From: an uncultured Pseudomonadota bacterium
GTDB taxonomy: Bacteria > Oederibacteriota > Muellerivitia > Muellerivitales > Muellerivitaceae
NCBI GenBank assembly: GCA_963770835.1
Contig: CAVYRH010000003.1
Coordinates: 288,001-352,000 of the forward strand
Direction: 5' to 3'
Length of the DNA stretch: 64,000 bases
Part shown: positions 23,999 to 46,704 of the stretch, piece by piece
How the letters are laid out: every line of letters begins with the position of its first letter
Position numbering within the stretch: position 1 is the stretch's first letter
The notes under the pieces: generated by a model
The model's database searches: none
The model's input: only the letters and a program-made list of their open reading frames with translations
Told to the model about the DNA's origin: nothing
Made by a program: the position numbers and the translations under genes

Positions 23999-24960
23999 AA
24001 TCATTCATTCGAAATTCCGCTGTGTCCATGGTTGTTTTTTTGGCGGCAACGGGGGCCATGGCCGATCAACAAGGCGGGCAGCGGCCTGCGGCCTACCTGG
24101 AACTGGGCGCGGGCGGCGTTCAAAACGCCATGGGCGATGCGGCCGTGGCGGATCGGAACGACCCGGCCTGTGGATTTTGGAATCCCGCCGGATTAAGCGG
24201 ATTAAGGGGATTTCAAATAGAGGATCAATACACCCTGCTGCCCCTGGGCCAACAGCTAAATTACTTCACTTTGGCCAACGGTTTCCGGGACTTCTTTTTT
24301 TATGGAATTTCCTCCTTTATTTACAGCGCCGGCGGAAATATTGAGGCCCGCGTGGGACCTTCCCTCACCCCTGACAGCGTTTTTGGCGACCTGGAAATGA
24401 CTTATTTGGTCTCGGTGGCTTTCCGCTTGAGTCCGCGCTGGTCGATAGGCGGGAATATCAAGATCGAGACGCAAAATTTCGATAACTATAACGGATTTGG
24501 TTTTGGGGAGGATTTGGGACTCCAATACCGTTTGACCCAATACACGACTCTCGGATTAATGATTCAAGACCCCTTCACTATTTTTAACTATGACAATTCA
24601 ACGGAAAACATCGTCCCCATTACCGTAAAGGCCGGTGTGGCCCAACATGACGAGCAATTGAACGCCAAATTGAACTGCGAATTGGATTGGAGCGCCGACC
24701 TCGGGTTTCAGCCCAGACTGGGGATCGAGTGGCGCCCGATGGAGGTTTTGGCTTTGAGGGGTGGATGTTGGGCGGGAGATATTACCGGTGGAATTTCGGG
24801 GGGGACTTTTTCCCTGAATCCAACCGCTGGGTTTGGAATACTGGCGCCACTTGGGTCCGCTGGCGACGGGTTGCTGGAATTCGATTATACCCTTTTGATG
24901 GATCGGATCGTGTCTGGCGGTCTTTTGCACCAAATCGCCATTACGGGGAAATTTCTTTAG
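23995..24960 (+). CDS. PorV/PorQ-like outer-membrane beta-barrel
   Basis: Signal peptide, AYLELGAGGVQNAMGDAAVA..NDPACGFWNPAGL (PorV/FadL N-terminal motif), amphipathic strands, C-terminal HQIAITGKFL. GTGA overlap with the subtilase stop. Confidence 0.8.
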   Translation: MKSFIRNSAVSMVVFLAATGAMADQQGGQRPAAYLELGAGGVQNAMGDAAVADRNDPACGFWNPAGLSGLRGFQIEDQYTLLPLGQQLNYFTLANGFRDFFFYGISSFIYSAGGNIEARVGPSLTPDSVFGDLEMTYLVSVAFRLSPRWSIGGNIKIETQNFDNYNGFGFGEDLGLQYRLTQYTTLGLMIQDPFTIFNYDNSTENIVPITVKAGVAQHDEQLNAKLNCELDWSADLGFQPRLGIEWRPMEVLALRGGCWAGDITGGISGGTFSLNPTAGFGILAPLGSAGDGLLEFDYTLLMDRIVSGGLLHQIAITGKFL

Positions 24961-25788: not shown

Positions 25789-25888
25789 TTCGGTTGTAAC
25801 GATGAAATTACGGCCTTTTTTATCGGTTTCACATGAAATAAAGGTATAATTCCAAAATTCATCCAAATTTCCATCTTGACTGGCTGTT

Positions 25889-28800
25889 ATGACAAAAACC
25901 TTAAAATCACTTTACCCTCTTGCTTTGTTCGTTTTCCTACAAGCCATTGTTCCTTCTTCCGTTCCAGCCCAATGTCTTTTAAGTGATCTTTTTACAACAC
26001 CGGGCAACCTGGCCATGCCGCCTTGGTTAACTGCAGATGTCGACGATTCCACCGCAGGCGTGGGCCAAACCATTGGGTCCGCCCTCACGATCACGGCGTC
26101 TGGGAATGGCATCGGTTTCGTAAACGCCGTAGATCCTCCCAACGACTCTTTCTACTACATTTACCAGGAGGTGTCAGAAGACAGTGACATAACCCTGCAA
26201 ATTAATGCCGTTCCTACCTCGAGCCCGGACGGTGAGTGCGGGATTATGATGAGGTCCAGCCTTGGTCCAACTACTTTGATGGCTTACATATGTGCGACTA
26301 ATTCCGGCATATATGACTTTGAATACACGGATAGTGGTGGCTCAGAAATTCCATTCAACGATGGGAACTATACCAATCCCTCAGTGGGCTATGTCCGGTT
26401 GGTTCGGCAACAGGATAATTTCACGGGTTATTATTCCCCCGATGGCGTCAATTGGAACGAGGTGGGTTTTAACGAGAGTTCCGGTGGTTCGAGTTTAAGC
26501 ATGCCCTATCCCTATTACGTGGGCATCGCGACCTCCTCGGCTGCTGGCGTAACAGGAACGGCAATCGTCAATAATTTCAGCGTATCCATAGGCGCCTGCA
26601 CTTCTACACCGACGGTCACCAATACGCCGACGAATACCCTCACCAACACCCCCACCTACACGCCCACTGTCACCCCCACCTTTACCCCCACAAACACTCC
26701 CACCAATACCTTTACGGACACTAATACTGCGACGAACACGCCCACTAATACGACGACGAACACGCCGACCAACACGACCACGAATACGGCAACCAATACG
26801 TCTACGAATACAGCCACTTCCACCCCGACGGATCCGGCGGTGTTGGTTAACCCGGGAAGCGGGGAACCACCTAATTCTACCCAGATACCTGGAGCGATGG
26901 ACGTGGCGGCCATGCAAATGGCGGTGACCAATCAGAGCAACGAGGTGGTGACCTTGAATTACGTTGTTTTGACAGCGGTGGATGGCAGCGGGCCCAACAG
27001 CGCTGCTGGAATCACGGCGGTCAATTTGATGAAAGGAACAATCCTATTGGCCAGTTCGACTTATAACGGGAGCGGTCTGGTGACATTGGGCGGATTCCCG
27101 CTGGATACGCTGGGGGCAGCCGGGTCGCCTTCGGCGGCGCAGACTTATACAGTGGAATACGACTTTTCGAGTACGGCACCTGCGGGGATTTACGTCGCCA
27201 ATTTGCAGAGCGGGGCGGCTGTACAAGGAGTGGGACAGGTATCGGGCATGCCCTTGACCGTATCCGGACCACCCCTCGACGGCGCAACTATCACAATTGC
27301 CACTCCGACACCTACGGCGACGAATACCGCAACCAATACCACCACTAATACGGCTACCGACACAGCCACAAAAACGACAACGAATACGCGTACAAACACC
27401 CCAACCTTCACGCCGACCAATACCCCCACCAATACCCCTACAAATACGACGACGAATACTCCGACTCTCACCCCGACGGTCACAGCGACCCTCACTGCCA
27501 CGAATACAGCCACTTCCACGCCTACCCAGCCAGTGGTGAACATAGCGCGGGTGACGCCGCCGGTGGATTCCACGCAGATACCGGGAGCCATGGGGGTGTC
27601 GGTGATGCAAGTGGCGGTGACCAACACCAGCGGTGAATTGGTGGCGTTGAAGGACCTGATATTCCAAGCTTCAGGGCAGGATGCCACCCAGATAACGCAG
27701 GTAAAGCTGTTTAGGGGATCGACCCTGGTGGGTGGAGGGGTTTATTCAGGAGCCAACGGTTTTGTGACCATGGGAGCACCGGCATTGGATACTCTGGCGG
27801 CCGGGGGGAACCAAAGCTACCTTTTGACCTATGATTTTTCGGGTTCGGCCTTGACGGGAGCATATGCGGTTAGCCTAGTGGGGGCGGAAGGAACAGGCCA
27901 AACCAGCGGCCGGCCAATCCAATTGACAGGGGTACCGGCTGGAGGGGCGATCATTACGATTGCGACACCGACGTCCACGGCCACGAGTACGGCGACCAAC
28001 ACCACCACTAATACCCCCACGAACACGGCCACCAGTACGGCAACCTATACGACGACCAATACACCGACGAATACGGCCACGAACACAACCACCCTCACCC
28101 CGACAAGTACTGCGACATTTACCGCTACGAACACAGCTACCTATACGTCGACCAATACGACGACGAACACGCCGACCCTCACCACGACAGCCACGGCGAC
28201 CTTCACTGCCACAAATACAACCACTAACACGGCTACCAATACACCCACGAGCACGCTCACGTATACTGCCACTAACACCGCGACTGATACGGCGACGAAC
28301 ACCACTACTAGTACTGTCACCGAAACACCCACGGACACCACAACCAACACTCCAACGGCCACGACGACCAATACTCCTTCCCAGCCGGCCGTAAGTATTG
28401 CCACTGGAGTTCCAACTCTGGTTGGTTCAACTCAAATCCCTGGAGCGGTCAATGTGCCAGTTTTGGAGGTGGTGGTCAGCAACAACAGCAGCAGCCCACA
28501 AGAGGCAATCAGCTTAACCGGCATAAAATTCACGGCGAGTGGCTCGGGAAATGATCTGACAGGCTTAACGCAAGTGAGTTTGTATAGGGGTACGGCTCTT
28601 GTTCCGGGAAATTTTGTGCAAGGTGGTGTTTATTCCGCCGACAATGGGGCCGTGACGCTGGGATTACCGCTTGTGGACATTATTTCGGCTACAGCCGCCC
28701 AAACCTATACGGTTGCTTATGACTTCTCGACAACCGCCCCACAAGGAACCTATTCGACGGCGATTTTACTCGGAACGGATGTACAAGGGATAGGACAGAC

Positions 28801-31657
28801 CTCACTACGGTCACTCCAAGTCTCAGGTGCGCCTGTTAATGGAGTGACGATCACGATTGCCACCCCGACCGCTACGGCGACGAACACGGCGACCAACACG
28901 ACAACGAACACGCCTACCGATACCGCCACTAATACCGCGACGAATACGGCCACGAATACCACTACGAATACGCCTACGAATACTGCTACGGGCACGTCGA
29001 CTAACACCGCGACGAACACCACTACCAATACTCCGACGAATACTGCAACAGACACGGCGACGAATACGCCAACGAACACCCCGACGAATACGGCCACGAA
29101 CACTGCCACCAATACGGCGACTAACACCGCTACCAATACCGCGACGCTTACGACGACGGATACCGCCACCGACACAGCTACGAATACAGCTACCTCCACG
29201 CCGATTGATCCGCCGGTAGGGATAGTGTCGATCTGGACCCCTGTGGATCCCGTGGTGATCCCTGGCACGTCGGGAGTGACGGTGATGAAATTCCAGGTGA
29301 CGAACAACAGCACGACGGAAGCGGTGTCTTTCCTGTCCTTGGTGTTGACGGGGACGACAACGGGAACGGCGGACGACGCAACGGGAATAGCTCAGGTGAA
29401 ACTCTTTGACACAACAGAGCAAGTGACGGGTGGGACCTACGCGGTGGGATCGGCGCCCTTGACGCTGGGGTTGGCGCCGAAAGAGATGCGGGGGATCGCG
29501 TCAGCGCCGCAAACCTATGTGGTGACCTACGATTTTTCAGTGACCCAATTGGCAGGGAGTTACGCGGTAACAGTTGGGGTGGGAGGGTTGACGGGAACGG
29601 GGGCCACGAGCGGAAAGCCAATAGCTGTCTCAGTCCTGCCGATTGGAGGAGATGCAGTCACGGAGTCCCTGCCGACTTCCACGCCGACGAATACGGCTAC
29701 CAATACGGCGACAAATACCACAACCAATACGCCGACGAACACGGCTACGAACACAACGACGAACACGACCACCGCCACGCCAACCAATACGGCGACTAAC
29801 ACTCCTACCAACACTGCGACCAACACGGCCACGAATACCGCAACCAATACGGCGACGAACACGGCCACTAATACGGCGACAAAAACAGCAACTAATACGC
29901 CGACGAACACGGCTACGAACACAACGACGAACACGGCCACCAATACCGCGACGCTTACGGCGACCAATACCGCCACGAACACGACTACTAACACAGCGAC
30001 CAACACGGCTACCGATACCACGACGAATACGGCTACTAACACGGCGACAAATACCGCTACTGCCACCGCTACGAATACGGCCACGAACACAACCACCAGT
30101 ACTGCGACAAGTACGGCTACCAATACCTTCACCACAACCCCCACCAGCACCGCTACCCCCACTCCGACATCGACACCCTTGCCACCCGACCATTTGCTTT
30201 TCCTGACGCCCATTCCTCCATTTACCGCAGGAGTTACTACGAGCTTTACGGTCCAAGTTCTTAATTCAAATGGAGTTACGGTGGCTTTCCCGACGGCCGT
30301 AACCATGGATTTGACATCTAGTACTACAGGCGATTACAGTTTCTCGCTTTCTTCAGGCGGGCCAACCATCACTTCTTGTACCCTCCCGGCCGGAGCCGTT
30401 TCCCTGACACTCTTTTACACCGGATACAAGGTGGAAACCTCGAACCCGAACTTGAAGGTAACGGTCCTTTCGTCCATTGCCAACCCCTCGGTTTCGCAGG
30501 CTATTGCGGTTTCGCCGGCCGCTTATTCCAAGCTTCAGGTCTTGTTGCCTAATCAGGTTTCGGATCCGGGTAAACCCTTCTCCGATCCTTTGGGGCGGAT
30601 TGGAACCCCCAATTCGGTGGAGGCAGGAAGTTTTGTGACCGCCACAGTTAACGCCGTTGATAAGTACTTCAACTTGATCAGCACAATCATAGATACAGTG
30701 AACTTCACCACGAGCGACGCGGCCGCTCCACCCGAGGGTTCGGCCAACCTGACGGGAGGCATCGCCACCCATCCTGTGGTTTTCCTCACTGAAGGCGGTC
30801 AAACCTTGACTGCAACGGATCCAAACACGGCTCCCCCTTCAACGGGCACTAGCGACACGATTACCATATTGCCGGGGGTCAACAGCACGCTGTTGAACGT
30901 GGTTCATGGTTCGCCGAACCTTTCCACCGTGACCTTGGGTGAAAATGGAGTCGAAGTGCTTACCTTTAATCTTTCGGTGCAACAAGGGACCGATGCCATC
31001 AAGATCAATAGTTTGACCCTGAATGCAGAAGACCAGGACGGAGTTGGCGTTGCGATGGACACGGCTTTCCAGAACCTGATCCTAACGGGAGGGGCCCTGC
31101 CGATCACCGTTAATACCAGTCTCATAGGCCCGGTTACCGCTGTTTTTCCTGGCCCAATCACGGTTAATGCTGGATCCAACTCGCTAGCTTTGACCGTGAC
31201 TGCCGATATCCTGGCCAATGCTTCGGCAAAAACCGTAAGGCTAAGCTTGGGAAAAACCGGTATCGTCGCTCAAGACGCTTCGGTTGGTAGTCCAGTAGGA
31301 TTCACGACCTTCGGTGATTCCACCGGCTTTCCCATGAATTCTAATCTCATGCTATTCAGGGCGACTGACGTGACAAGTACCTACGGTAATTATCCCAATC
31401 CGTTCCACCCTGGGCAGGGAAGCACGACCATCGAGTTCAACCTGCAGTCCGCATCCACTGTTTCTTTAGTGCTCTATGATGTCATGGGCGAAAGGACGGC
31501 GACCTTGATTGACAACCAAACCCTTCAGGCGGGATTGCAGAGGGTTTCTTGGGACGGACGGAACGGGATGGGAGCTTATGTGTTAAATGGCATTTATTAC
31601 GCTCAACTAATCGTCGACGGCCAAAAATACATGCTTAAAATCGCGGTGGTGAGATGA
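25889..31657 (+). CDS. Giant surface protein: ConA/DUF1349-like lectin head, four repeated beta domains, Thr/Asn-rich linkers, FlgD/T9SS-like tail
   Basis: Signal peptide; GIMMRSSL..YVRLVRQQDNFTGYYSPDGVNW..YVGIA; four copies of STQIPGA..V.N...TYxVxYDFS; tail NYPNPF...WDGRNGMG..VLNGIYY..KIAVVR. Confidence 0.88.
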   Translation: MTKTLKSLYPLALFVFLQAIVPSSVPAQCLLSDLFTTPGNLAMPPWLTADVDDSTAGVGQTIGSALTITASGNGIGFVNAVDPPNDSFYYIYQEVSEDSDITLQINAVPTSSPDGECGIMMRSSLGPTTLMAYICATNSGIYDFEYTDSGGSEIPFNDGNYTNPSVGYVRLVRQQDNFTGYYSPDGVNWNEVGFNESSGGSSLSMPYPYYVGIATSSAAGVTGTAIVNNFSVSIGACTSTPTVTNTPTNTLTNTPTYTPTVTPTFTPTNTPTNTFTDTNTATNTPTNTTTNTPTNTTTNTATNTSTNTATSTPTDPAVLVNPGSGEPPNSTQIPGAMDVAAMQMAVTNQSNEVVTLNYVVLTAVDGSGPNSAAGITAVNLMKGTILLASSTYNGSGLVTLGGFPLDTLGAAGSPSAAQTYTVEYDFSSTAPAGIYVANLQSGAAVQGVGQVSGMPLTVSGPPLDGATITIATPTPTATNTATNTTTNTATDTATKTTTNTRTNTPTFTPTNTPTNTPTNTTTNTPTLTPTVTATLTATNTATSTPTQPVVNIARVTPPVDSTQIPGAMGVSVMQVAVTNTSGELVALKDLIFQASGQDATQITQVKLFRGSTLVGGGVYSGANGFVTMGAPALDTLAAGGNQSYLLTYDFSGSALTGAYAVSLVGAEGTGQTSGRPIQLTGVPAGGAIITIATPTSTATSTATNTTTNTPTNTATSTATYTTTNTPTNTATNTTTLTPTSTATFTATNTATYTSTNTTTNTPTLTTTATATFTATNTTTNTATNTPTSTLTYTATNTATDTATNTTTSTVTETPTDTTTNTPTATTTNTPSQPAVSIATGVPTLVGSTQIPGAVNVPVLEVVVSNNSSSPQEAISLTGIKFTASGSGNDLTGLTQVSLYRGTALVPGNFVQGGVYSADNGAVTLGLPLVDIISATAAQTYTVAYDFSTTAPQGTYSTAILLGTDVQGIGQTSLRSLQVSGAPVNGVTITIATPTATATNTATNTTTNTPTDTATNTATNTATNTTTNTPTNTATGTSTNTATNTTTNTPTNTATDTATNTPTNTPTNTATNTATNTATNTATNTATLTTTDTATDTATNTATSTPIDPPVGIVSIWTPVDPVVIPGTSGVTVMKFQVTNNSTTEAVSFLSLVLTGTTTGTADDATGIAQVKLFDTTEQVTGGTYAVGSAPLTLGLAPKEMRGIASAPQTYVVTYDFSVTQLAGSYAVTVGVGGLTGTGATSGKPIAVSVLPIGGDAVTESLPTSTPTNTATNTATNTTTNTPTNTATNTTTNTTTATPTNTATNTPTNTATNTATNTATNTATNTATNTATKTATNTPTNTATNTTTNTATNTATLTATNTATNTTTNTATNTATDTTTNTATNTATNTATATATNTATNTTTSTATSTATNTFTTTPTSTATPTPTSTPLPPDHLLFLTPIPPFTAGVTTSFTVQVLNSNGVTVAFPTAVTMDLTSSTTGDYSFSLSSGGPTITSCTLPAGAVSLTLFYTGYKVETSNPNLKVTVLSSIANPSVSQAIAVSPAAYSKLQVLLPNQVSDPGKPFSDPLGRIGTPNSVEAGSFVTATVNAVDKYFNLISTIIDTVNFTTSDAAAPPEGSANLTGGIATHPVVFLTEGGQTLTATDPNTAPPSTGTSDTITILPGVNSTLLNVVHGSPNLSTVTLGENGVEVLTFNLSVQQGTDAIKINSLTLNAEDQDGVGVAMDTAFQNLILTGGALPITVNTSLIGPVTAVFPGPITVNAGSNSLALTVTADILANASAKTVRLSLGKTGIVAQDASVGSPVGFTTFGDSTGFPMNSNLMLFRATDVTSTYGNYPNPFHPGQGSTTIEFNLQSASTVSLVLYDVMGERTATLIDNQTLQAGLQRVSWDGRNGMGAYVLNGIYYAQLIVDGQKYMLKIAVVR

Positions 31658-33363
31658 TGCGAAAAATTACACGGTTTAAAGTTCGCGGCTCTAGGTTAAA
31701 ACCGTTCAAAATGAGAAAGACAGAAGTTGTCAGGCGACTTTCAAATGCTCTTTGTGCTTTGGCAATGATTCTTATCCCCGGGATTGTCCGGGCCCAAGTG
31801 GCCACCGGCGGAGTGGTATCACCCTTCAGCTTGGGAGGGTCCGCCAGAATGCTTGGGATGGGAAACACTGGAGCGGCGATCACGGGCGACGGGGATGGGT
31901 TCTTCGAAAACCCTGCGGTGCTGGCCACCCTGGATGAACACCAGATTCTCACCTTCCATGCGCCTTTATTCCAGGATACCCTTTACGATGCTCTAGGTTA
32001 TTTCAATCCGATCACTCTCCACAGCAGTTTCGGACTGGCGGTTGCCCGTCTGGGGGTTTCCAATATTCTTCAAACCCAGAACAATGTCCTGGCCCTTTCC
32101 ACCTTTTCCGATGAGCAATGGCAAGGACTCTTAGGCTACGGTTTCCGCGCCGTGGAAGGTTTGGACGTCGGCGGTACCGTGAAATATGAATTCGAACAGC
32201 TGGATTCCTATCAGGGTAGCGGAGTTGGATTGGATTTGGGCCTGCTTTACCACTTTTCGGATAACCCGCAGGATTTCAGCCAAATCGGCTATAAAAACAT
32301 TACCCTGGGTTTTTCGGCCTCCAACGTGCTTCAGCCTCAAACCAAACTTTTCGAGGATCCCAGCGTTCCTTTAAGAGTCTATCGCCCCGCCCTCTCCTAC
32401 CTTTACCGGTTTCCCTCCTCCACTAGCGAGCTTTGGTTGACCACCGAAGGGGAGGTGCAGGACGGCGGAACCAACCTCGTCAAAGGCGGGATGGAGTACG
32501 GCTGGAACCAAACGGTCTTCGCGAGGGCGGGTTTCGACGGTGTGAGCCCGACGGTGGGCGTGGGTCTGCGGTTATCGGATTTTCAACTGGATTATGCCTT
32601 TAACGAGCGCGATTTAGGCGCACTCCACCGTTTTTCATTGAGCTATCGTTTCGGGCGTTACATCGATCCCCTTCAAACTCAAAAGCTCGATCTTTTGAAA
32701 TCGGTGGCCCGTGGTTATACGGCGGCAAAGGATTATGACCCCGCCATCAAAGCTTGGGAGGATGTATTGAAGGAATTTCCCGATGATGGCGAAGCATCCC
32801 GTTCGCTCCAGGATCTTCAACGAAAACGCAAAAATGCCGTCCAAGACCAACTGGATCTTGCGCGTTCCGCTATGAGCCGAGGAGACTTTGAGAAAGCCCT
32901 GCCCTATATTGCAAAGGTCCTTAGCCTGGACCCCAGTAATAAGGGTGCCAAAGAACTCCTGAAGCAGGTCGATCAAAAAACCCTGATCTCCTCCAATTAC
33001 ACGCGAGGAGTGGAAGCTTATAGCCAAGAAGATTTTGGGCTGGCGGTTCAATATCTTCAGACGGTTTATGAGGTGGACCCTCATTACCGAGACGTGGAAC
33101 ATCTCTACCATGACGCCCAAAGTTATTATCAACCTTTGCAAACCATGCCCAAGGAATTAACGGCCCTCTACGCCAAGGGAGTGGATTATTATATGAATGG
33201 CGAATACCAGAAAGCCATCGACGCCTGGGAGAGTCTGTTGGAAAAAAATCCTAAAAATTATCTAGTGCGCCGAAATATCGAGGAAGCGAAAACCCGTCTC
33301 AGTGAAAAGGCTCCGCCCCACCCTGCGGTTTCCTCTGGCAACAAATCGGGGGATAGGCCTTGA
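31654..33363 (+). CDS. PorV/PorQ-like beta-barrel fused to C-terminal TPR array
   Basis: LGGSARMLGMGNTGAAITGDGDGFFENPAVLA. Barrel ends LGALHRFSLSYRFG, followed by ~220 aa of TPR helices. ATGA overlap with the upstream gene. Confidence 0.85.
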   Translation: MMRKITRFKVRGSRLKPFKMRKTEVVRRLSNALCALAMILIPGIVRAQVATGGVVSPFSLGGSARMLGMGNTGAAITGDGDGFFENPAVLATLDEHQILTFHAPLFQDTLYDALGYFNPITLHSSFGLAVARLGVSNILQTQNNVLALSTFSDEQWQGLLGYGFRAVEGLDVGGTVKYEFEQLDSYQGSGVGLDLGLLYHFSDNPQDFSQIGYKNITLGFSASNVLQPQTKLFEDPSVPLRVYRPALSYLYRFPSSTSELWLTTEGEVQDGGTNLVKGGMEYGWNQTVFARAGFDGVSPTVGVGLRLSDFQLDYAFNERDLGALHRFSLSYRFGRYIDPLQTQKLDLLKSVARGYTAAKDYDPAIKAWEDVLKEFPDDGEASRSLQDLQRKRKNAVQDQLDLARSAMSRGDFEKALPYIAKVLSLDPSNKGAKELLKQVDQKTLISSNYTRGVEAYSQEDFGLAVQYLQTVYEVDPHYRDVEHLYHDAQSYYQPLQTMPKELTALYAKGVDYYMNGEYQKAIDAWESLLEKNPKNYLVRRNIEEAKTRLSEKAPPHPAVSSGNKSGDRP

Positions 33364-35759
33364 ATCTCTACGAATTCTTCACCCGGATTGTTTCCCACAT
33401 TCCCTTGGAACCCAAGCGGAGAAACTACCGCTTGGAGGTGGAAGCCAAGGATATTGAGCTTCTGACCATCAAGGACTTCGTCCAGCGAGTCTGCGACGCC
33501 GCCGGTTGTACCCCGAAGGAAACCTCCAACATCAAGCTGGCCATTGACGAGGCTTGCAGCAACATCATTCGGCACGCTTACAAGGGAAAGGAAGGCGGGA
33601 AGATTACGCTGGAGATGGGGATCGGCTTCACGGACCTGAAAATAAAGATTATCGATTACGGCACTCCGTTTGATTTCAGGAGCGTCAAGGACCCCGATCT
33701 CAACCATTACGTCGATATCGGGAAAAAAGGCGGCTTAGGCATTTGGCTTATCAAAAAGGTCATGAATCGGGTCCAATATAAGTCCTACCAGGACCGCAAT
33801 GAGCTAATCCTTTCTCGCCGACTCTCGAAGGCACCCCCCAAGGAACTGGGCCTCAAGAAGGGAACTTATTCAGTTTCGGCAAAGTTCTCCTTGGGCTCCG
33901 CCGTCCTGGTTATATTGATTACCCTTACGGCTTATTTTTACCTGATCAACCGCCAGCAAACCTTCACTCTCAACCAGCAAAAGAGCAAAGTTACCACTTT
34001 ACTCCAGGCCATCGCCGCTGATGCGGGGAGCCCTGTCGTCCTAAAAAATGACTTGGAACTGAACCACCTTATCCGGGAAGTGCAGGAGGAAGACAAGGAA
34101 AGAGTCTTGAGTTACGTCTTTATCGTCGGAAGTGAAGGGAAATACCTTGCCCATTCCGATTTAAGCCAGCTTTTTAAACCTTACAAACCACTTCCGGGAG
34201 TTCAAATTAAACGAGTTTCAGGTGTTCAAATTTTCCGAATTTCCGCTGACGAAGGGCCCCTGACGGATTATGCCTCCGTCGTTTTTTTCCGAAGTCAGGC
34301 AGTTGGCGAGGTTCATGCGGGTGTCACGGATGAGTCCCTGCACCAGTTGAACACCCGGATTAGGGCCGATATACAAAGGTTAATGTTGTGGATCGCCGTT
34401 ATCAGCATTGCGGGGTTGTACCTTCTTTCCCGAATCTTCATCCGGCCTTTCCAGAAGATACTGGAAGGCATCCAGGCCGTAAGCCAGGGAGACCTCAACG
34501 CAAAGATCGAGGTGGAAAGCCAGGATGAATTCGGCCTATTGGCCAAGATTTTTAACGAAATGACGGTCAAAATCCAGGATTCCCAGGTCGGGCTTGTGGA
34601 ACAGGAACGCCTCCAAAAGGAAATGCAGGTGGCTCAGGAAATCCAACATACCCTTTTGCCCGCCTCCTTCCCCCAAATAGAGGGTTATGAGATCGGGGCC
34701 ACCTACCGGGCGGCTAAGGAAGTGGGCGGTGACTATTACGACTTTTTTTGGGTGGATCCCACGACTTTGGGCATCGTGGTAGCGGACGTTTCGGGCAAAG
34801 GCGTCCCAGGATCTCTCGTCATGACCATGATTCGTACCGCCATGAGGCTGGAAGCCCGGGGAAACTGGTCGGCCTCTGATGTGTTGGCAAAGGTCAACCA
34901 ACATGTCACCTCCGACATGAAGCGGGGCATGTTCGTAACCATGTTTTACATTATTTTGGATTCCCGGGATCGTTCCATTAATTTTGCCAGCGCGGGGCAC
35001 AACCCGATGATCCTCTATCGGGAAAAAACTAAAGAGGTTTATTTCCTCAAGCCCAAAGGTTTCCCGGTTGGAATCGATCTTCCGGAAGCAGATATGTTCG
35101 TCAAAAACATGACTCTCCAGAAAGTCAGTCTTGAAAAAAATGATATGCTCATCATCTATACGGATGGTATTACGGAAGCCATGAACCCCGAGAAAGAGCA
35201 GTTCGGAGAAGAAAGGCTTATCCGCCTCATTAAAGAGAACTCGACTCTCACCCCGGCCGAGTTTGTGGAAAGACTGAATGAGGCGATTGCCCAGTTTACC
35301 CGTGGGGCCGAACAGAATGATGACATCACCGTCGTCGCCATCAAAGAAAAAATGAAAGTGGAGCAGGTGGAATACAAATTCCGGAAGAAATTGATCGATT
35401 TGGTCGAGAAGAAAGGAATGTCAATCGCGTCGGCCTGCCGTCAGATGAACATTTCGCCTAAAACTTATTACCGGTATAAAAAACTTTTTGATGAGAAAGG
35501 AAGAGCGGGATTGAAACCGGTTTTATCCAAGCGGACGGGGTTGATGGAGCTTTCTCAACCTCAGCAACAGGCGGTTCTGGCCCTCGTGAGGGAGCATCCT
35601 GAATACAATTCGAAACGAATCACGGAAGAGATTGGGAAAAGCACTACCCCTCCCCAAAAAGTGGAACACCGACTGGTCCTGGCCTTTTTAAAACGAAAGG
35701 GCTTGCAGGATTTGAAGGCGCGAAAAGCCCTTGAGGTCAACGAGGTTGACAGGGTCTAA
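33360..35759 (+). CDS. Membrane RsbW-type kinase - periplasmic sensor - HAMP - SpoIIE/PP2C phosphatase - HTH fusion
   Basis: LAIDEACSNIIRHAY, DYGTPFD, GGLGIWLIKKVM (HATPase_c_2). Two TMs. DEFGLLAKIFNEM (HAMP). EVGGDYYD, ADVSGKG, AGHNP, YTDGITEA, DDIT (PP2C). SIASACRQMNISPKTYYRY (HTH). TTGA overlap with the upstream gene. Confidence 0.92.
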   Translation: MNLYEFFTRIVSHIPLEPKRRNYRLEVEAKDIELLTIKDFVQRVCDAAGCTPKETSNIKLAIDEACSNIIRHAYKGKEGGKITLEMGIGFTDLKIKIIDYGTPFDFRSVKDPDLNHYVDIGKKGGLGIWLIKKVMNRVQYKSYQDRNELILSRRLSKAPPKELGLKKGTYSVSAKFSLGSAVLVILITLTAYFYLINRQQTFTLNQQKSKVTTLLQAIAADAGSPVVLKNDLELNHLIREVQEEDKERVLSYVFIVGSEGKYLAHSDLSQLFKPYKPLPGVQIKRVSGVQIFRISADEGPLTDYASVVFFRSQAVGEVHAGVTDESLHQLNTRIRADIQRLMLWIAVISIAGLYLLSRIFIRPFQKILEGIQAVSQGDLNAKIEVESQDEFGLLAKIFNEMTVKIQDSQVGLVEQERLQKEMQVAQEIQHTLLPASFPQIEGYEIGATYRAAKEVGGDYYDFFWVDPTTLGIVVADVSGKGVPGSLVMTMIRTAMRLEARGNWSASDVLAKVNQHVTSDMKRGMFVTMFYIILDSRDRSINFASAGHNPMILYREKTKEVYFLKPKGFPVGIDLPEADMFVKNMTLQKVSLEKNDMLIIYTDGITEAMNPEKEQFGEERLIRLIKENSTLTPAEFVERLNEAIAQFTRGAEQNDDITVVAIKEKMKVEQVEYKFRKKLIDLVEKKGMSIASACRQMNISPKTYYRYKKLFDEKGRAGLKPVLSKRTGLMELSQPQQQAVLALVREHPEYNSKRITEEIGKSTTPPQKVEHRLVLAFLKRKGLQDLKARKALEVNEVDRV

Positions 35760-35808
35760 AAGGCCAGTGATAATAAAGCCGCTATCGGCCCTAATTTTCG
35801 GAGGAAGC

Positions 35809-36171
35809 ATGGAAAATATTTCGGTTAATATTTCGGAGCATCCGCAAAACAAGGATATCACGCTTCTTTCCGTTAAAGGGTTCATTGATACGACCACAGC
35901 TCCGGAATTCGAAAAAAAATTCCTTTCGCTATTGGGAGAAAAAAAGTTCAAGCTGGTGGTGGATTTGAAGGATGTGAATTATATCAGTAGCGCTGGCTGG
36001 GGGATTTTTATCAGTGAAATCAAGCGTATCCGCAACCAAAAGGGTGATTTGGTGTTGGTGGGCATGAATCCGGAAGTTTCGGAGGTTTTCGAACTTTTGG
36101 AATTTAATACGATATTGAAATCGTTCCCGAATGTTGAGGCGGCAATTAAAAAGGGGTTCGAGAAAGCCTGA
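35809..36171 (+). CDS. STAS anti-anti-sigma factor (RsbV/SpoIIAA-like)
   Basis: VKGFIDTTTAPEFE, LVVDLKDVNYISSAGWG (phospho-Ser motif), MNPEVSEVFELL. GGAGG RBS. Confidence 0.93.
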   Translation: MENISVNISEHPQNKDITLLSVKGFIDTTTAPEFEKKFLSLLGEKKFKLVVDLKDVNYISSAGWGIFISEIKRIRNQKGDLVLVGMNPEVSEVFELLEFNTILKSFPNVEAAIKKGFEKA

Positions 36172-36264
36172 ACCCGTAAAACGGGGACGAGTTATAACGA
36201 CCCGGGACAAGCCGGTTTTTGCGGCACCGGGCGAAGGATTTGAAGATCCGGAACTTGGAAAATA

Positions 36265-37401
36265 ATGGAATCGGCAGCTTTAACCTCCCTCATTGAAATT
36301 GAGGGAAAAAACTTTACCTTGGAGACATCGCCCATTACGGGGAAAAACCGCATTTCCTCCCTTGTTCAGCTGGGTGGAAGGGCCATTTCCCTTCGGGAAG
36401 TCGAACTGCCTGAGGGATTGGATGATGATTCCCTTAAGCGCTATTTGCAGGAAACCCACCGAATCCGCTCGGTGGAGCTAGAATCCCTTTTTCGCCTGAA
36501 TAAGAAGATTGACGAAAAACCTACGGCGGATGCCTGCTGGAAAATTGGAGTTATCTTTCTCTCTAATGGTTTCTACGAAGACTCCCGCCAGAAATTCCTC
36601 AAAGCCATTGAGCAAGACCCCCGCCACCTACAAGCGATTAAAAACTACGGGATTGCTTTGACCCTTATGGAGGATTATGACGGCGCCTTTGCCAGCCTTA
36701 ATCAGGCCCGTGAGTTGGGTCCATCTTTTGCCGATATTTATTACCACCTTGGAAACACCCACTTATATAAACGTGAGCTTGATGAGGCTGTTCAAGGCTA
36801 TCTCCAGGCTCTTCAAATCAACCCACGTTACGCGGATGCCCGCTTAAGACTGGCCACTGCCTGTGTAGGTTATCTGGCGCAATCTTCCAATCAGCTGGAG
36901 GGAGGGAAGGTTTTGGAGCTTTCCGAAAGGGCGAAAACTGAAGCCGAGACAGCGGCAACTTTAAACCCCAAGGTTCGAAACAGGGCTTATTTGATGGCGA
37001 TGGATTATCTTCGAAACAAGAAATATTCCCAAGCATTCCAGGCTTTTATTGAGGTCCGCCCTAAATATGTTCCTCGAATCGGCGATGAAATCATCTTTTT
37101 CTTTACGTTAACACTTTTATATGGAAGTGAAGGAATCGACCTTCAAATGACAGAGCAATACATCGATAAATTGACGAAGGTAATCGAAGAATACCCGCAT
37201 TATGCCGACCTGCATCACCATTTGGGGACCGCTTATCTGATCAAGTGCCGTTTTGATGTGAGCCGGTCTTTGAAAGAATTCAAGAAAGCCTTGGAAATCA
37301 ATCCCCAGTTTCAGAAGGCCTTAGGGAATTCGGCGGACACGGAGGACCTTCATAAAAAGGTTCTGATAGTCTTAAAAAAGGCAATTATACCGCAGGGTTA
37401 A
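36265..37401 (+). CDS. Cytoplasmic TPR protein with small N-terminal alpha/beta domain
   Basis: TPRs (FADIYYHLG, ALQINPRYADA, YPHYADLHHHLG, ALEINPQF). No signal peptide. Confidence 0.85.
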   Translation: MESAALTSLIEIEGKNFTLETSPITGKNRISSLVQLGGRAISLREVELPEGLDDDSLKRYLQETHRIRSVELESLFRLNKKIDEKPTADACWKIGVIFLSNGFYEDSRQKFLKAIEQDPRHLQAIKNYGIALTLMEDYDGAFASLNQARELGPSFADIYYHLGNTHLYKRELDEAVQGYLQALQINPRYADARLRLATACVGYLAQSSNQLEGGKVLELSERAKTEAETAATLNPKVRNRAYLMAMDYLRNKKYSQAFQAFIEVRPKYVPRIGDEIIFFFTLTLLYGSEGIDLQMTEQYIDKLTKVIEEYPHYADLHHHLGTAYLIKCRFDVSRSLKEFKKALEINPQFQKALGNSADTEDLHKKVLIVLKKAIIPQG

Positions 37402-37483: not shown

Positions 37484-37867
37484 TTAAGATTCAGAGGGAG
37501 AGGATAAGGAGTAATTGGTTTCCAGAAAATGAATGTGCTCAGGGGTTACTTTCTCGAAGTTGACTCCATAAGCGAAGCGCCCCATCGATTTCATTGGGTT
37601 CTTTCGTGCCCAAACCACTTTTCCCAGGTAAATGACTGAATGGCTGCCATCGAGCGAATCTAATTCCAATGAGACGCCCGTGTTGTTGTCAATGGCTTTA
37701 TTCGAGTAAATCTGGGCCCCGGTGAAGCTGACATTAACCAATTGGGCGCGGAAAATATTACCGTCACTGGCGGTATTGGCAACCCGCCCCTTGATGGATT
37801 TGACCATCACCACTCGCCGGTTTGTCCTCTTGTTATTTTTATTTTGAGGACGAATAATTTTTTTCAT
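37484..37867 (-). CDS. Stand-alone PilZ-domain protein
   Basis: RxxxR (KRTNRR) and NxSxxG (NVSFTG) c-di-GMP motifs; GKVVW...YGVNF. Confidence 0.85.
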   Translation of the reverse strand: MKKIIRPQNKNNKRTNRRVVMVKSIKGRVANTASDGNIFRAQLVNVSFTGAQIYSNKAIDNNTGVSLELDSLDGSHSVIYLGKVVWARKNPMKSMGRFAYGVNFEKVTPEHIHFLETNYSLSSPSES

Positions 37868-41913: not shown

Positions 41914-44900
41914 ATGAATTTAGACTTTAAAACTTGTTTAATAAATCTAAGAAGTTTTGACCTTTCTAAACTTCGAATAGTTTTCCTTTTGTTAATGACG
42001 TCGAGTACTTCCCCCCTGATGGCTCAAGTGCTTGGCAGTGCGAACCTTTGTCCGACTGGAGGAGGTCCGACCACCTATTCCGCGCACGCCACAACTTATA
42101 CCCTGGGTGGTACGGGAGCCTGTGGTTATCCTTCCGGATCCTTTGATCCGAATTATTACGCGGCTATTGCCGGAACCAGTAGTTACGGGGGGGATTACCA
42201 GAGCGGTGAAATTTGCGGGGCCTGCGCGGCTGCGTATTACGGCTCAAATGCCGTTACGGTAATGATTATTGATAATTGCTCTACTTGTGCTGACTCCAAC
42301 CAACTCGACCTGGGGCCTGTTGCCTTCAATGCCTTGACTGGCAATACGACGGGCGATTATGCCATCAACTGGAATTTTGTTCCGTGCCCATTGAGCCTGA
42401 TGACAGGCGATTCCTCCGGCGATATTTCCTACGAGTGGAAGCAATGCGGAAATGCGAATTATAATCCGATTCAATTTCTAGACACCTTATTTCCCATCAC
42501 GGCCGTCGGTTGGAGCACTGGCGCCACAGGCCCCTTTACCGCGCTTCAGGACGACTATAATAATGTTGGCGGGAATTCCTATTGGTCGAATGCCGGCCAA
42601 AACTTGAACGGGACTAACGGCCCCTTTTATTTTGCTGTTACGGACGCAAGAGGTGATACGGTCACATTAGGACCTATTAGCGGTACTACTTGTGGTGTCG
42701 CAGCGGCGAATGCCCAATTTAATGGTTGCGGGCCGACGGCCACGCCTACGATAACTGGGACACCCACTCGGACTGATACGCCCGGTGGCCCTCCTACCCC
42801 TACTTATACTTTTACCCCCGTCTCCAGCGGTGACTGCGTTTACGATTATGGGTCGGGTGCCGCCTGTACTTTTACCCAAAACGCCTCAATCGACAATTGC
42901 ACGACTTCCAGTAGTTCGCCTAGCACTCAAGCCATTAACCAGTTTTACGCTTATGGGGCATCGGGCGTGTCGGTTCTTTACTGCAGTGGCGACTCAGAAG
43001 GACCCAGTGGATCGGGCGCAGGAGGCGGATCCAACACGGTCAACCTTCAATGCGCTCCTCCCGCCAATGCCACCATCGTGGCGGCTTTTGTGGACGTCGT
43101 AGAATATAACGGCAACGCCAGCCCAAGCTTGGCCCCCAGCACGGGTCCTATTGTTGTTGCGGCTACCACGACAGGGGCCGGGGTGGCGTCGGGGTATGCC
43201 AATTTGTGGAATAAGTGGGACGACCCCCGGTATGGCTGGCAAGCCAGTTCTTATGGACAAACGGCCTGGAACGTTCGTTACAGCGTTCCTCTCAGCGCTA
43301 TTACTACCGGCACGACTTCCTATAGTGTTTCTTATCCCAACATTGGAAGCAATACAGTTTGGTCGGCATCGATGGTGGTGGTTTATACCATACCAGCGCC
43401 TAATGTTTGCGGCGCCATAGCTTTGGATGACGGCCTATTTTATTGGGACACCTTGGATGGGGAAGGACAGCAAGTTCTAAATGAAGGCATTACTCCCTGG
43501 GCCCCAACCTTGGACATGGGCTGTGTGGATCCCACCACGAGCTGTGCCACCAACCAGTTTTCCGTCATGGGAGGGAACCAATACGGGAGCTGCGCGAGCA
43601 ACCCAACCACCTTCCTGGACCAATTTTACGGCAATACTTCGGGAAGCGTTACCTTACAGTCCACTGCGGCCAATGAATGGAACCAGGCTACAGGGGGGCA
43701 GTGCGGAAACCTTTATGCTTTTGACGGAACCTACTCTGGGGTTCCTTTGTCAGGGACGGATAAAATGACCTGGGGGTTGGGGCAAGCCCTGGATTCGGGA
43801 GGAAAGCAAGAGTACTGGGTAAATATGCTGGCGGCCTATTGTAATGCAACTTGCATAACCCCTACCCCAACACCCACCCCATCTAAGACTCCGACACCCA
43901 CAGTACCCCCAACTTCTACCCCCACAAGAACAACTACTCAAACGGCTACATCGAGCACGACTTCGAGTGCTACTTCTACCACCACCAGGACGGCCACCCA
44001 GACGGCCACGACAACAGCCACCTCATCCACAACATCCACGGCGACTTCCAGCGCCACTTCTAGTGCTACATCCTCGGCGACAGCTTCAGCGACCACCAGC
44101 GCAACTTCCACCACCACCCGAACAGCTACCCAGACGGTTACCACAACAGCCACCTCGTCCACAACCTCCACGGCGACTTCCAGTGCCACTTCTAGTGCTA
44201 CATCCTCGGCGACAGCTTCAGCGACCACCAGCGCGACTTCCACTACTACCCGAACAGCTACCCAGACGACCACTACAACAGCTACCTCATCCACGACATC
44301 CACTTCAACGGTCACGGCCGTTGCGACCGCCACTAGTACTTCCGCAGCTACCGCTACGGCGACAGCGGTTGCTACAAGCACTGCCACATCCGTTCCCACG
44401 GCTACGGCCACTGCTATCCCAACTTCCACCAGTACCAGTACGGCAACCTCCATACCGACGAGCACTTCCACATCCACTTATTCGACAACGGCTACCGCTA
44501 CTGCCACCTCCACTTTTACCGAAACTTCGACAGCCACTTCTACCGCCACGGCGGTTCCGTCGGCCACGGCCACCAGCACCGCTACCATGACTGCAACCAA
44601 AACAATGACCGATACCCCCATTGACACCTCTACGGCAACTCAGACGGCAACCGATACGGCGACATCCACGGCCACTAATACCTTTACTGTCACGAACACG
44701 ACAACAAGCACATCCACGGCGACTGCAACCCGGACAGCTACTTCCACCAATACGGTGACGGACACCTATACACCCTCTAATACCGCGACCAATACAGCCA
44801 CAAATACAATGACGTCCACCGCAACCAACACCCATACGGCGACTAATACGGCTACCATGACGGCGACAGCCACAGCCACCAATACCTATACTTCTACTTC

Positions 44901-46704
44901 AACGGCTACCAACACAGCCACGGCAACGCCTAGCTTTACTCCCACCGATACCTTTACTGCGACTGATACCTTTACACCGACCAATACAGCCACTGATACC
45001 TTTACGACCACAAATACCGATACTTCGACGGATACAAAGACTCCCACGGATACCCCCACCGTCACCGCCACCTTTACGGCCACTTCCACGCCCACCAACA
45101 CTTATACCCCCACGAACACTCCGACTTTGACTCCCACTTGGACGTCCTCCAACACCCCCACGGAGACCGATACCTATACGGTAACCAAAACCTTCACTTT
45201 TACCTGGACGCCCACCTTCACTTTCACGCCCACCAATACCTGTACTTCCACCGCTACGGCTACACTGACTTCCACACCCACATTTACCGCTACCTCCACG
45301 GCCACAAAGACCTCGACCAATACGGCCACCGCCACAAGCACTAACACGGCCACCTTGACACCCACCGCAACAGCGACCTCCACAGCCACCTTTACCGCCA
45401 CTTCCACTTACACTTTTACACCCACTCCAGGGATTTCTATCACCAAACAGGTCTCGGAAACAGCAGCCCAGTCTGGTGATGTGGTCACCTACAGGCTGAT
45501 TCTCAACGTCGTCCAGTCTTCCGCTTCCTCGGTGACGGTGACGGATGTTTTGCCCTCCCAAATGACGTTTGAAGGGTTTGGTGCCACTCCGGCTGGCGGA
45601 ATTGCCAGCGCGGTTGGGAACAACCTGGCATGGGTCTTCCCAAGCCTGCCGGAGGGGGCCGTGACCATGACTTATCGTGCCCAAATCGCAAACTTTTTGG
45701 CCGGGGGAACGGTGTTGACCAACAACGCCCAATTGACCTATGCGGGGAACCCGGTTCCCCAGAAAGCCTCGGTAAATGTCACCATTGAGGCGGAATATAC
45801 GGTGAAGATAGGGGTGTATAACTCGGCTGGAGAGTTAGTGAAGCAAATTTACGTGAAGGAACTTTCACAACAGATCACCAATATCAGCCTGTTGCAGACG
45901 CCTACCATTACCAGCTTGCATGGGGTTGTATATGTGACCGTGGATGGGGTTCAACTCGCTTCTTGGGACGGAACGAACCAGGCGGGAGACCCGGTGAGTA
46001 ACGGTGTTTACTACGTCAAGGTGGATAACATTGATCCGAATGGGGTGGATACGAGTGTGTCGGAGACGGTGACGGTAAGCCGGTCGATCGCGAAGATCCA
46101 AGTGAACATCTACAACGAGGCTGGGGAAGTCATAAAGCATCTTTACGCCTATTCGGACGACCCAGGAAACATGAACCTGGGGGATGTGGCGTTTTCCAGC
46201 AGCGTGATCAAGCCGACGGTGGGGACGCCAACCTCCAACAGCACCAGCGATTTGACCCTGACCTTCCCGAATGGGACGACCGTGACTTGGGATGGGACCA
46301 ATGACAACGGGCAGATTGTGACCGACGGGACCTATGAAGTGGAAGTGAATTGGATGGACGGGAAGGGTGGCCAACAGGTTACCACTCATAACGTGACAGT
46401 AGAAAGAGGGAATAACTCGCCGGCGGGCGGGAACGTGTTTGCCTACCCGAATATTCTGAAGGGCGGGGCGACGTCGGTGACGGTGCAGATTAATTCGAGT
46501 CTGAGCCTGACGCTCACGGCCAGCGTGTATGACGTGGCGGGCGAGTTGGTGAAGAGGCCGGTTGTAAGCCCGGCGGGGACCGGAACGGCGCCGGTGGATG
46601 TATCGGGGCTGGCTAGCGGGCTTTATTTCATAGTGGTGGACTTAACGGACACAAACGGACATTTCATCCAGAAACAAGTGACCGAGATCGTTATCCGCAA
46701 ATAA
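41914..46704 (+). CDS. Giant secreted protein: expansin-like head, Cys-rich domain, Thr-rich stalk, DUF11, two FlgD-like domains, T9SS-type tail
   Basis: [71 protein letters not shown] and [13 protein letters not shown]...[12 protein letters not shown]. Confidence 0.88.
43972..44304 (+). repeat. 132-bp (44-aa) tandem repeat, about 2.5 copies, in the Thr/Ser stalk
   Basis: Units start at 43972, 44104 and 44236 ([22 protein letters not shown]...). Confidence 0.88.

Follow-up and report, generated by a model that had tools for sequence, protein, structure and literature searches.

An IS481-type helix-turn-helix module retained at the C-terminus of a predicted membrane kinase-phosphatase: a candidate output of an envelope-linked partner switch

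The sequence studied here is a stretch of 64,000 nucleotides (the window) from an uncultured bacterium (assembly GCA_963770835.1, contig CAVYRH010000003.1, positions 288,001 to 352,000), and the gene in question is a single open reading frame (ORF) on its forward strand (33360..35759) encoding a protein of 799 amino acids, in the following called the sensor. Judged by profile matches and hydropathy, this protein is an inner-membrane sensor that combines a predicted RsbW-type kinase, a predicted PP2C phosphatase and a bipartite helix-turn-helix (HTH) module, all features of this gene and its operon given below being on the + strand. An RsbW/SpoIIAB-type serine kinase domain (33456..33815, residues 33–152; PF13581, HATPase_c_2, E 4e-25) is followed by a first transmembrane (TM) helix, a periplasmic sCache domain, a second TM helix and a HAMP domain (jointly 33879..34577; hydropathy peaks at residues 177–196 and 341–361; PF17203, sCache_3_2, at 205–329; PF00672 at 355–406). 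Then come a PP2C/SpoIIE phosphatase domain (34758..35345, residues 467–662; PF07228, E 3e-50), with its motif 1 just upstream at D458, and the HTH module, consisting of HTH1 (35367..35513, residues 670–718), placed by profile matches, alignment and a structure model, and HTH2 with a terminal helix (35544..35729, residues 729–790). The original prediction concerned 35370..35759, which correspond to residues 671–799, and left the N-terminal kinase, both TM helices, sCache and HAMP of the same protein unnamed.

Kinase motif residues E64, N68, D99, G101 and G124–G127 are invariant in 101 sequences, as are the metal-binding aspartates of the PP2C domain (D458, D476, D602, D654 and D655). N68, D99-x-G101 and G124-G125-L126-G127 mark the N-terminal domain as a GHKL serine kinase, and we take them to be its N, G1 and G2 boxes. 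The junction between phosphatase and module is near-invariant (K662 and E663 are invariant), the HTH following directly on the last PP2C strand. No receiver (REC) domain was found in the sensor with Pfam, TM/sCache/TM/HAMP standing in its place. Within the genome, the sensor gives the sole SpoIIE match and the sole strong RsbW-type (HATPase_c_2) match, a second one being marginal (29.7 bits). It misses all NCBIfam equivalog cut-offs (RsbW, 64.9 against 145; SiaA, 74 against 700), and the domain order given here corrects automatic labels such as 'RsbU/transposase' on its relatives.

The tail had been described as the DNA-binding domain of an 'IS481/IS630-like' transposase, and the peptides quoted for it do lie in frame behind the PP2C domain within this ORF. 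Pfam profiles HTH_28 (E 2e-11), HTH_29, HTH_23 and HTH_Tnp_1 score above their cut-offs, while HTH_32, also named in the original prediction, matches at E 2e-5, below its cut-off (HTH_28, HTH_29, HTH_23 and HTH_32 cover residues 674–758). Regarding the source family, the IS481 part of the label stands and the IS630 part does not: IS481 (NF033577) is favoured because it gives the highest NCBIfam score (59.8 bits, E 3e-16, covering model positions 2–115 of 284 only), and an origin from IS630, with 35.2 bits, is rejected; IS3 and ISNCY follow with 30.6 and 28.0 bits. A tblastn search of plasmids points the same way, 14 of the best 19 rows being annotated as IS481 transposase and the other 5 as unannotated, hypothetical or integrase, with the best matches, mostly IS481 transposases, at about 30% identity (for background on the IS481 family see the available part of PMC10045372). 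Matches to the module in an Atlas search are clusters of HTH/transposase type only, and no full-length copy was found on plasmids.

The module is not accompanied by the rest of a transposon. As had been noted, no DDE domain follows, since the ORF stops at 35759, there is no rve/DDE match, and the score of 59.8 bits compares with an IS481 cut-off of 224. Likewise, no long terminal inverted repeats surround the module in 35100–36300, where only 9 short pairs of 10–13 nt with a chance-like appearance occur. While IS481 elements are expected in multiple copies, the module is present once in the genome, and its GC content (0.47–0.48) lies inside the range of the flanks (0.42–0.56). The only other HTH1-like matches in this genome (G000) are four IS3-type OrfA copies (C3:75475, C3:88404, C2:192778 and C18:2136).

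The HTH identity of the tail is supported by its predicted fold. The structure model (pLDDT 84.9, pTM 0.49) displays two three-helix domains connected by a loose linker, and the best whole-length structural matches, all of them weak, are the bipartite DNA-binding domains of TnsB, IstA, Tc3, SETMAR, Pax5/6 and Mos1. No Foldseek match reached an E-value of 0.001 or better, and a PDB sequence search with the HTH profile returned no real relative (best E 0.024). For the module, the median net charge amounts to +16 among 17 family members, as against +7 among 66 others and +9 among 23 transposase modules. HTH1 keeps S699, Y703, Y704 and R705 (an S-x-x-T-Y-Y-R helix) in most phyla; residues 699–705 of the recognition helix include positions presumed to read bases and others presumed to be of backbone type. 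HTH2 is always kept, and is present as a tandem duplicate in some family members (L010 and L013).

A second family without DDE domain carries two tandem HTH1-HTH2 modules N-terminally on large GT2 glycosyltransferases of up to 2949 amino acids (P0164, P0166, P0188, P0196, P0204, P0212, P0224 and about 50 more, one of them labelled Microgenomates). In these modules S-R and H-G residues of the recognition helices are near-invariant, and they possibly represent a separate domestication of the same HTH1-HTH2 module.

Orthologues were collected from 41 related genomes, searched with the full-length sequence, and from GTDB, scanned with PP2C patterns (generic patterns on a sample), which together gave at least 98 loci. 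Among the matches listed, the HTH is present in 30 of 31 subfamily loci (L001–L031), the exception, L018, being cut off by the end of its contig; none of the 67 more distant PP2C loci has it. Because a first protein search had included the HTH itself, retention was determined anew with a query restricted to the PP2C domain of one distant member: HTH2 is found in 119 of 120 matches, the lone miss being a partial protein cut inside HTH2, and both HTHs occur in 73/73 matches outside Goldbacteria. In the unrooted tree of PP2C domains, 46 HTH-bearing sequences stand on one side of a branch (99/96) and 38 HTH-less ones on the other. The HTH-module tree, equally unrooted and of only 121 columns, separates 46 family modules (100/99) from 21 transposase and 24 GT2-linked modules, with subclades that largely match those of the PP2C tree. 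These data suggest that an IS481-type module was likely captured once from a transposase.

The module occurs exactly once in 56 of 57 genomes of the phylum Calditrichota, in 28 of 61 sampled genomes of the phylum of locus L021, and patchily in the phylum of the window itself. A metagenome-assembled genome labelled Caldithrix abyssi, a cultured member of Calditrichota, carries the gene as well (L331). Carriers are labelled FCPU426, Goldbacteria, Firestonebacteria, Latescibacterota, Krumholzibacteria, Eisenbacteria, KSB1 and Calditrichota, in addition to one Ignavibacteria and one Spirochaetota bin, all of these being record labels of metagenome-assembled genomes, which can be wrong. Among named relatives, the nearest carry the label candidate division FCPU426; Goldbacteria/FCPU426 are described as cellulose degraders in the available part of PMC7031533. 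Synonymous sites are saturated (proportion of synonymous differences, pS, 0.70–0.78) among 16 close orthologues, from which the frameshifted L016 and the truncated L018 were omitted. Amino acid identity is 0.83 for PP2C, 0.70 for the kinase, 0.67 for HTH1, 0.46 for HTH2 and 0.43 for the sensor region, HTH1 being about as conserved as the kinase, which shows purifying selection. The proposed domestication is thereby supported, the retention search, two trees and the Calditrichota count describing a fusion that is old, retained and of single origin; the refuting condition named with the original prediction, orthologues without the HTH, did not hold.

Several relatives deserve mention in their own right. 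Two kinase-sensor-PP2C fusions of the same phylum (L243:316-2250 and L244:2685-4733) have no HTH, lie outside the HTH clade and represent natural HTH-less controls. A paralogue nested in the family of the window (P0229/P0266) keeps both HTHs with kinase and PP2C motifs that look broken, and may possibly be a pseudo-enzyme retained for its HTH. A KSB1 genome (G101) encodes a 1993-amino-acid paralogue with HTH1 deleted and with C-terminal TPRs (L282:5194-11172), and a protein with TIR, RsbW-like and STAS-like parts (L285:3089-4327) directly upstream of another family copy.

The sensor gene is part of a conserved operon. Its likely promoter, a TATAAT -10 box at 25845..25850 to which this function is ascribed by position, precedes a gene for a secreted cargo protein of 1922 amino acids (25889..31657) with T/N/P repeats, and TATAAT or TATACT is found upstream of the cargo start in 9 of 10 orthologous regions. 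The cargo itself has no Pfam match; the L027 orthologue weakly matches FlgD_ig and CHU_C, from which a C-terminal sorting tail (FlgD-Ig-like) of the type IX secretion system (T9SS) kind is predicted. There follows a PorV/PorQ-family outer-membrane barrel with C-terminal TPRs (31654..33363; NF033709, 90.7 bits at a cut-off of 90), the stop codon of which overlaps the start of the sensor gene. Downstream of the sensor lie a 120-amino-acid STAS protein of anti-anti-sigma type, the predicted substrate (35809..36171; PF01740, E 2e-21; TIGR00377, 74.7 bits at a cut-off of 53.45), and a cytoplasmic TPR protein of 378 amino acids (36265..37401), a conserved member according to profile match and neighbour counts.

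Neighbours were counted in 106 distinct loci of 111 (2 fell below the PP2C threshold, 3 were duplicates), which were chosen by similarity and include kin that are not independent. Of the loci whose sequence reaches far enough, 85 of 86 have a PorV-family barrel as the immediate upstream neighbour; a T9SS-type C-terminal domain is encoded upstream in 65 of 78. STAS is fused behind the HTH in 32/92 loci, adjacent in 36/92 (fused or next, 68/92) and absent in 24/92, 20 of these 24 being L209–L228. The TPR protein follows in 53 of the 84 loci whose downstream sequence is long enough. In 32/92 loci, though not in that of the window, the gene directly behind the sensor encodes a ParA-family ATPase; examples are the ParA/Soj ATPases of L021:10395-11394, L119, L120, L141 and L155, often followed by an ORF of 90 amino acids with no Pfam match, which we take to be ribbon-helix-helix-like.

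Further genes of the window touch on the same themes. A subtilase with an FlgD_ig tail is followed by a second PorV-family gene (22199–24960), a secreted protein of 1596 amino acids carries a Por secretion tail (41914–46704), and a stand-alone PilZ protein (37484–37867, minus strand) is convergent with the TPR gene of the operon and stands beside it in 13 loci of the family. The genome contains 24 PorV-family ORFs and a partial SprA-like match below cut-off.

Five other cassettes of the genome (L312–L316; C26:278000-283000, C4:556300-561700, C5:363600-367400, C26:341500-346400 and C26:307200-311700) consist of an extracytoplasmic function (ECF) sigma factor, a single-pass anti-sigma-like protein, a PorV-TPR barrel and a cargo that is secreted and in L312 has CBM9/PA14. 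In 4 of 5 cases the periplasmic part of the anti-sigma-like protein has an FlgD_ig fold resembling T9SS sorting domains, and the arrangement as a whole has the look of a cell-surface signalling system assembled from T9SS parts. The PorVs of these cassettes form a clade of their own (100/99) that excludes the barrel of the window, so common descent with it is not supported.

The STAS protein of the window has a phospho-acceptor, presumably Ser61, placed by analogy to the motif of SpoIIAA and RsbV. It has no HTH tail, nor is a tail present in its lineage. In 15 of 36 loci with a free STAS, this partner ends in a copy of HTH2 (Calditrichota, Eisenbacteria, KSB1 and other FCPU426 families). These tails have a median charge of +9 in about 63 residues, are positive in 17/17 cases, and are more basic than the HTH2 of the sensor (+3). 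A Trp at the start of the recognition helix is conserved in 14 of 17, and the tails group together in the tree with weak support (SH-aLRT 85). The genome holds 8 STAS ORFs in total. One paralogue (C26:659961-660494, L317), 72% identical to the STAS of the window, is oriented divergently to an ECF sigma gene at a distance of about 0.6 kb; C14:41986-42609 and C4:349763-350158 encode another two close paralogues.

The STAS gene may have its own promoter, a predicted sigma-70 consensus TTGACA-17-GATAAT within the 3' end of the sensor gene and facing STAS (35746..35774), which matches in 11 of 12 positions, as it does in 17/17 loci (L001–L017). The C-terminal residues NEVD[T/R]V encoded here resemble a TPR-binding peptide of EEVD type. 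This reading was rejected: V-D-[T/R/S] encodes TTGACA, with a -10 box 16–18 nt further on in 17/17 loci, and conservation of the peptide is explained by its codons carrying this box of the predicted STAS promoter. GTTT occurs 16–19 nt upstream of the operon -10 box in 7 of 9 orthologous promoters, compared with 21 of 547 TATAAT sites of the genome; it is only a weak lead, since these promoters are kin and AT-rich and their palindromes differ.

As originally stated, no sigma factor lies in the window: none of the 20 Sigma70_r2 matches of the genome falls inside, the nearest on the contig being about 38 kb beyond the sensor gene. With 20 sigma factors elsewhere in the genome this absence proves little. 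No sigma gene was found among the conserved operon neighbours either.

Based on this dataset, we tentatively favour, at somewhat less than even confidence, a partner switch that is linked to the envelope and independent of sigma factors, with DNA binding by the IS481-type HTH module as its output. The PorV-TPR barrel and the T9SS-type cargo would signal across the envelope to sCache, and HAMP would shift the balance of kinase and phosphatase activity on Ser61 of STAS. Unphosphorylated STAS may then bind the kinase domain, as SpoIIAA binds SpoIIAB, and thereby change the hold of the HTH modules of a sensor dimer on DNA. A precedent without sigma factor is CapK/CapS, where, according to the available part of PMC13373217, an anti-sigma-type kinase controls a STAS-HTH repressor that binds its own promoter. 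A STAS with its own HTH2 could act like CapS and bind DNA under the control of its phosphorylation, possibly at its own promoter. The sigma-free character is consistent with the sensor being the sole SpoIIE and sole strong RsbW-type match of a genome with no free anti-sigma partner for it, and the link to the envelope with the pairing of PorV-TPR barrels and ECF sigma/anti-sigma genes at 5 loci of the same genome. The suggestion of the original prediction that the HTH is a DNA-binding output is plausible in view of the basic charge, the kept S-x-x-T-Y-Y-R helix and the CapS-like STAS-HTH2 partners. A more far-reaching version, held with distinctly greater reserve, sees the IS481 DNA-binding domain as the output of an ancient trans-envelope switch at the core of a phylum, domesticated in a Pax-like manner, in which a T9SS-type surface protein and a PorV-TPR barrel act on a single-chain kinase-phosphatase and further on HTHs of sensor and STAS, in place of a sigma factor.

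A number of observations weigh against these readings. The structural matches score weakly (no Foldseek E below 0.011, no Z above 7.3, with a root-mean-square deviation of 7–10 Å). Residue 700, an Arg in 98% of GT2 and 48% of transposase modules, is Pro or Thr here, and residues 701–702 vary within the family, unlike in a fixed recognition helix. HTH1 is decayed in the Goldbacteria clade, giving no profile match in 47/47 proteins (18/18 loci), and deleted in the KSB1 paralogue L282, and the HTH2 of the sensor family is weakly basic (median +3 in 61 sequences). No conserved palindrome or operator was found at the operon or the STAS promoter in the orthologous regions examined. Deleting the own HTH of CapK had no effect in the assay described in the available part of PMC13373217. 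As the trees are unrooted, the direction from transposase to regulator is parsimony, not proof, and the parallel with sigma-linked PorVs is an analogy because the PorV of the window lies outside their clade. Finally, a sigma target in trans is possible, as the genome has 20 sigma factors and, among its 8 STAS ORFs, one that is 72% identical to the STAS of the window and next to an ECF sigma gene.

It is conceivable, though rather doubtful, that the module has ceased to bind DNA and serves protein docking or dimerisation (with STAS, the TPR protein, the kinase domain or RNA polymerase), and that the true output is to be sought elsewhere, for instance in a sigma factor acting in trans or in a target outside transcription like that of SypA. 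HTH2 is never lost and has been duplicated repeatedly (on STAS, and in tandem in L010/L013), and STAS is either fused behind the HTH or free, in 15/36 cases with a tail, as if tail and fusion were alternative tethers; decay of the recognition helix of HTH1 in Goldbacteria, where no STAS adjoins the orthologues, the action of SypE downstream of transcription (available part of PMC3610818) and the 20 sigma factors of the genome fit as well. On the other hand, the lineage of the window has a free STAS without tail, binding between the HTH2 copies of sensor and STAS is disfavoured by both being basic (+3 and +9), HTH1 keeps S-x-x-T-Y-Y-R in most phyla, and the genome has only one strong RsbW-type domain, with no sigma gene travelling with the operon.

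It appears unlikely that DNA binding of low specificity serves to anchor STAS-HTH2 and the membrane complex on the nucleoid, so as to position or locally concentrate them, and not to control genes. Such a role would agree with charge and backbone-type residues being kept where base-reading positions are changed or variable, with the ParA-family ATPase and small ribbon-helix-helix-like ORF behind many sensor genes, and with no operator being found at either promoter; but ParA is limited to loci of Latescibacterota/Krumholzibacteria type and L024, being absent at the locus of the window, and the Trp of the STAS tails is more like that of a specific binder. From the weights given to the favoured partner switch and to its rivals it follows that the module probably binds DNA in some form.

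Very improbable is a role of the module as input that senses nucleic acid and regulates phosphatase or kinase, in the way single-stranded DNA activates CapK (available part of PMC13373217): the near-invariant junction to the last PP2C strand would suit it, but a periplasmic sensor and HAMP are present in the protein already, and the DNA site of CapK is modelled between its STAS and GHKL domains, not on the HTH (same source). A functionless scar of a recent insertion sequence (IS) or an assembly chimera, which only the likeness to IS481 would favour, is ruled out for practical purposes by in-frame retention over several phyla with saturated synonymous sites, by one branch in each of two independent trees, by the single-copy pattern of Calditrichota, and by the lack of IS ends in a genome whose other HTH1 matches are four IS3-type OrfA copies only.

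If the sigma-free partner switch holds, the CapK/CapS principle would be extended to a membrane receptor and tied to PorV-family barrels, and the PorV link suggests that parts resembling type IX secretion serve surface signalling outside Bacteroidota. The family further offers a clean, testable case of an old bacterial domestication of a transposase domain: it has a single origin, is single-copy, occurs in nearly all Calditrichota and extends to several other phyla, most of them uncultured. Natural differences among its members (loss of HTH1, a copy of HTH2 on STAS, fusion of STAS on three occasions) are a ready comparison set for the role of each HTH. No description of a kinase/sensor/PP2C-HTH fusion was found in the literature, most subscription papers and supplements lying outside the search.

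The classical partner switches with a sigma factor are RsbU/RsbV/RsbW-sigmaB and SpoIIE/SpoIIAA/SpoIIAB-sigmaF. The sensor and its STAS share with them the same three catalytic and substrate parts with intact motifs; unlike there, kinase and phosphatase are fused and membrane-bound, and the operon has no sigma gene. The N-terminal domain of IS481 transposases (NF033577) aligns over both HTHs and the terminal helix (31% identity over 106 amino acids to L279), whereas the sensor has no DDE core and no terminal repeats, is single-copy and shows altered recognition-helix residues. The Pax paired domain, SETMAR and CENP-B contain transposase-derived DNA-binding domains in eukaryotes. They resemble the module in having a bipartite transposase-type fold without a working transposon; the sensor differs in being bacterial, IS481-derived and fused to a membrane kinase-phosphatase, with putative DNA binding and fold E-values of 0.09–1.2.

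SypE/SypA of Vibrio fischeri likewise joins an N-terminal serine kinase to a serine phosphatase at the C-terminus in one chain that acts on a STAS protein; unlike the sensor, SypE has a central REC domain, the available part of PMC3610818 names no TM, sCache, HAMP or HTH, and the effect is downstream of syp transcription. CapK/CapS, as far as described in the available part of its report, is alike in pairing an anti-sigma-type GHKL kinase with a STAS substrate without sigma factor, in a kinase that carries an HTH and in a STAS gene with its own promoter, which is a predicted one here. CapK differs in its order (HTH-STAS-GHKL), in activation by single-stranded DNA, in a position beside an immune operon and in that no phosphatase or membrane sensor is described there; the sensor has neither this architecture nor this neighbourhood, its neighbours being different. 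CapS joins STAS to an ArsR/MarR-like winged HTH (wHTH), whereas the STAS of the window is without HTH and 15 of 36 free STAS neighbours carry an IS481-type HTH2. The sensor would work like the CapK/CapS and SypE/SypA systems, yet it lacks defining features of its closest known counterparts (no REC, wHTH or DDE), and is a real, old and conserved variation on partner switching.

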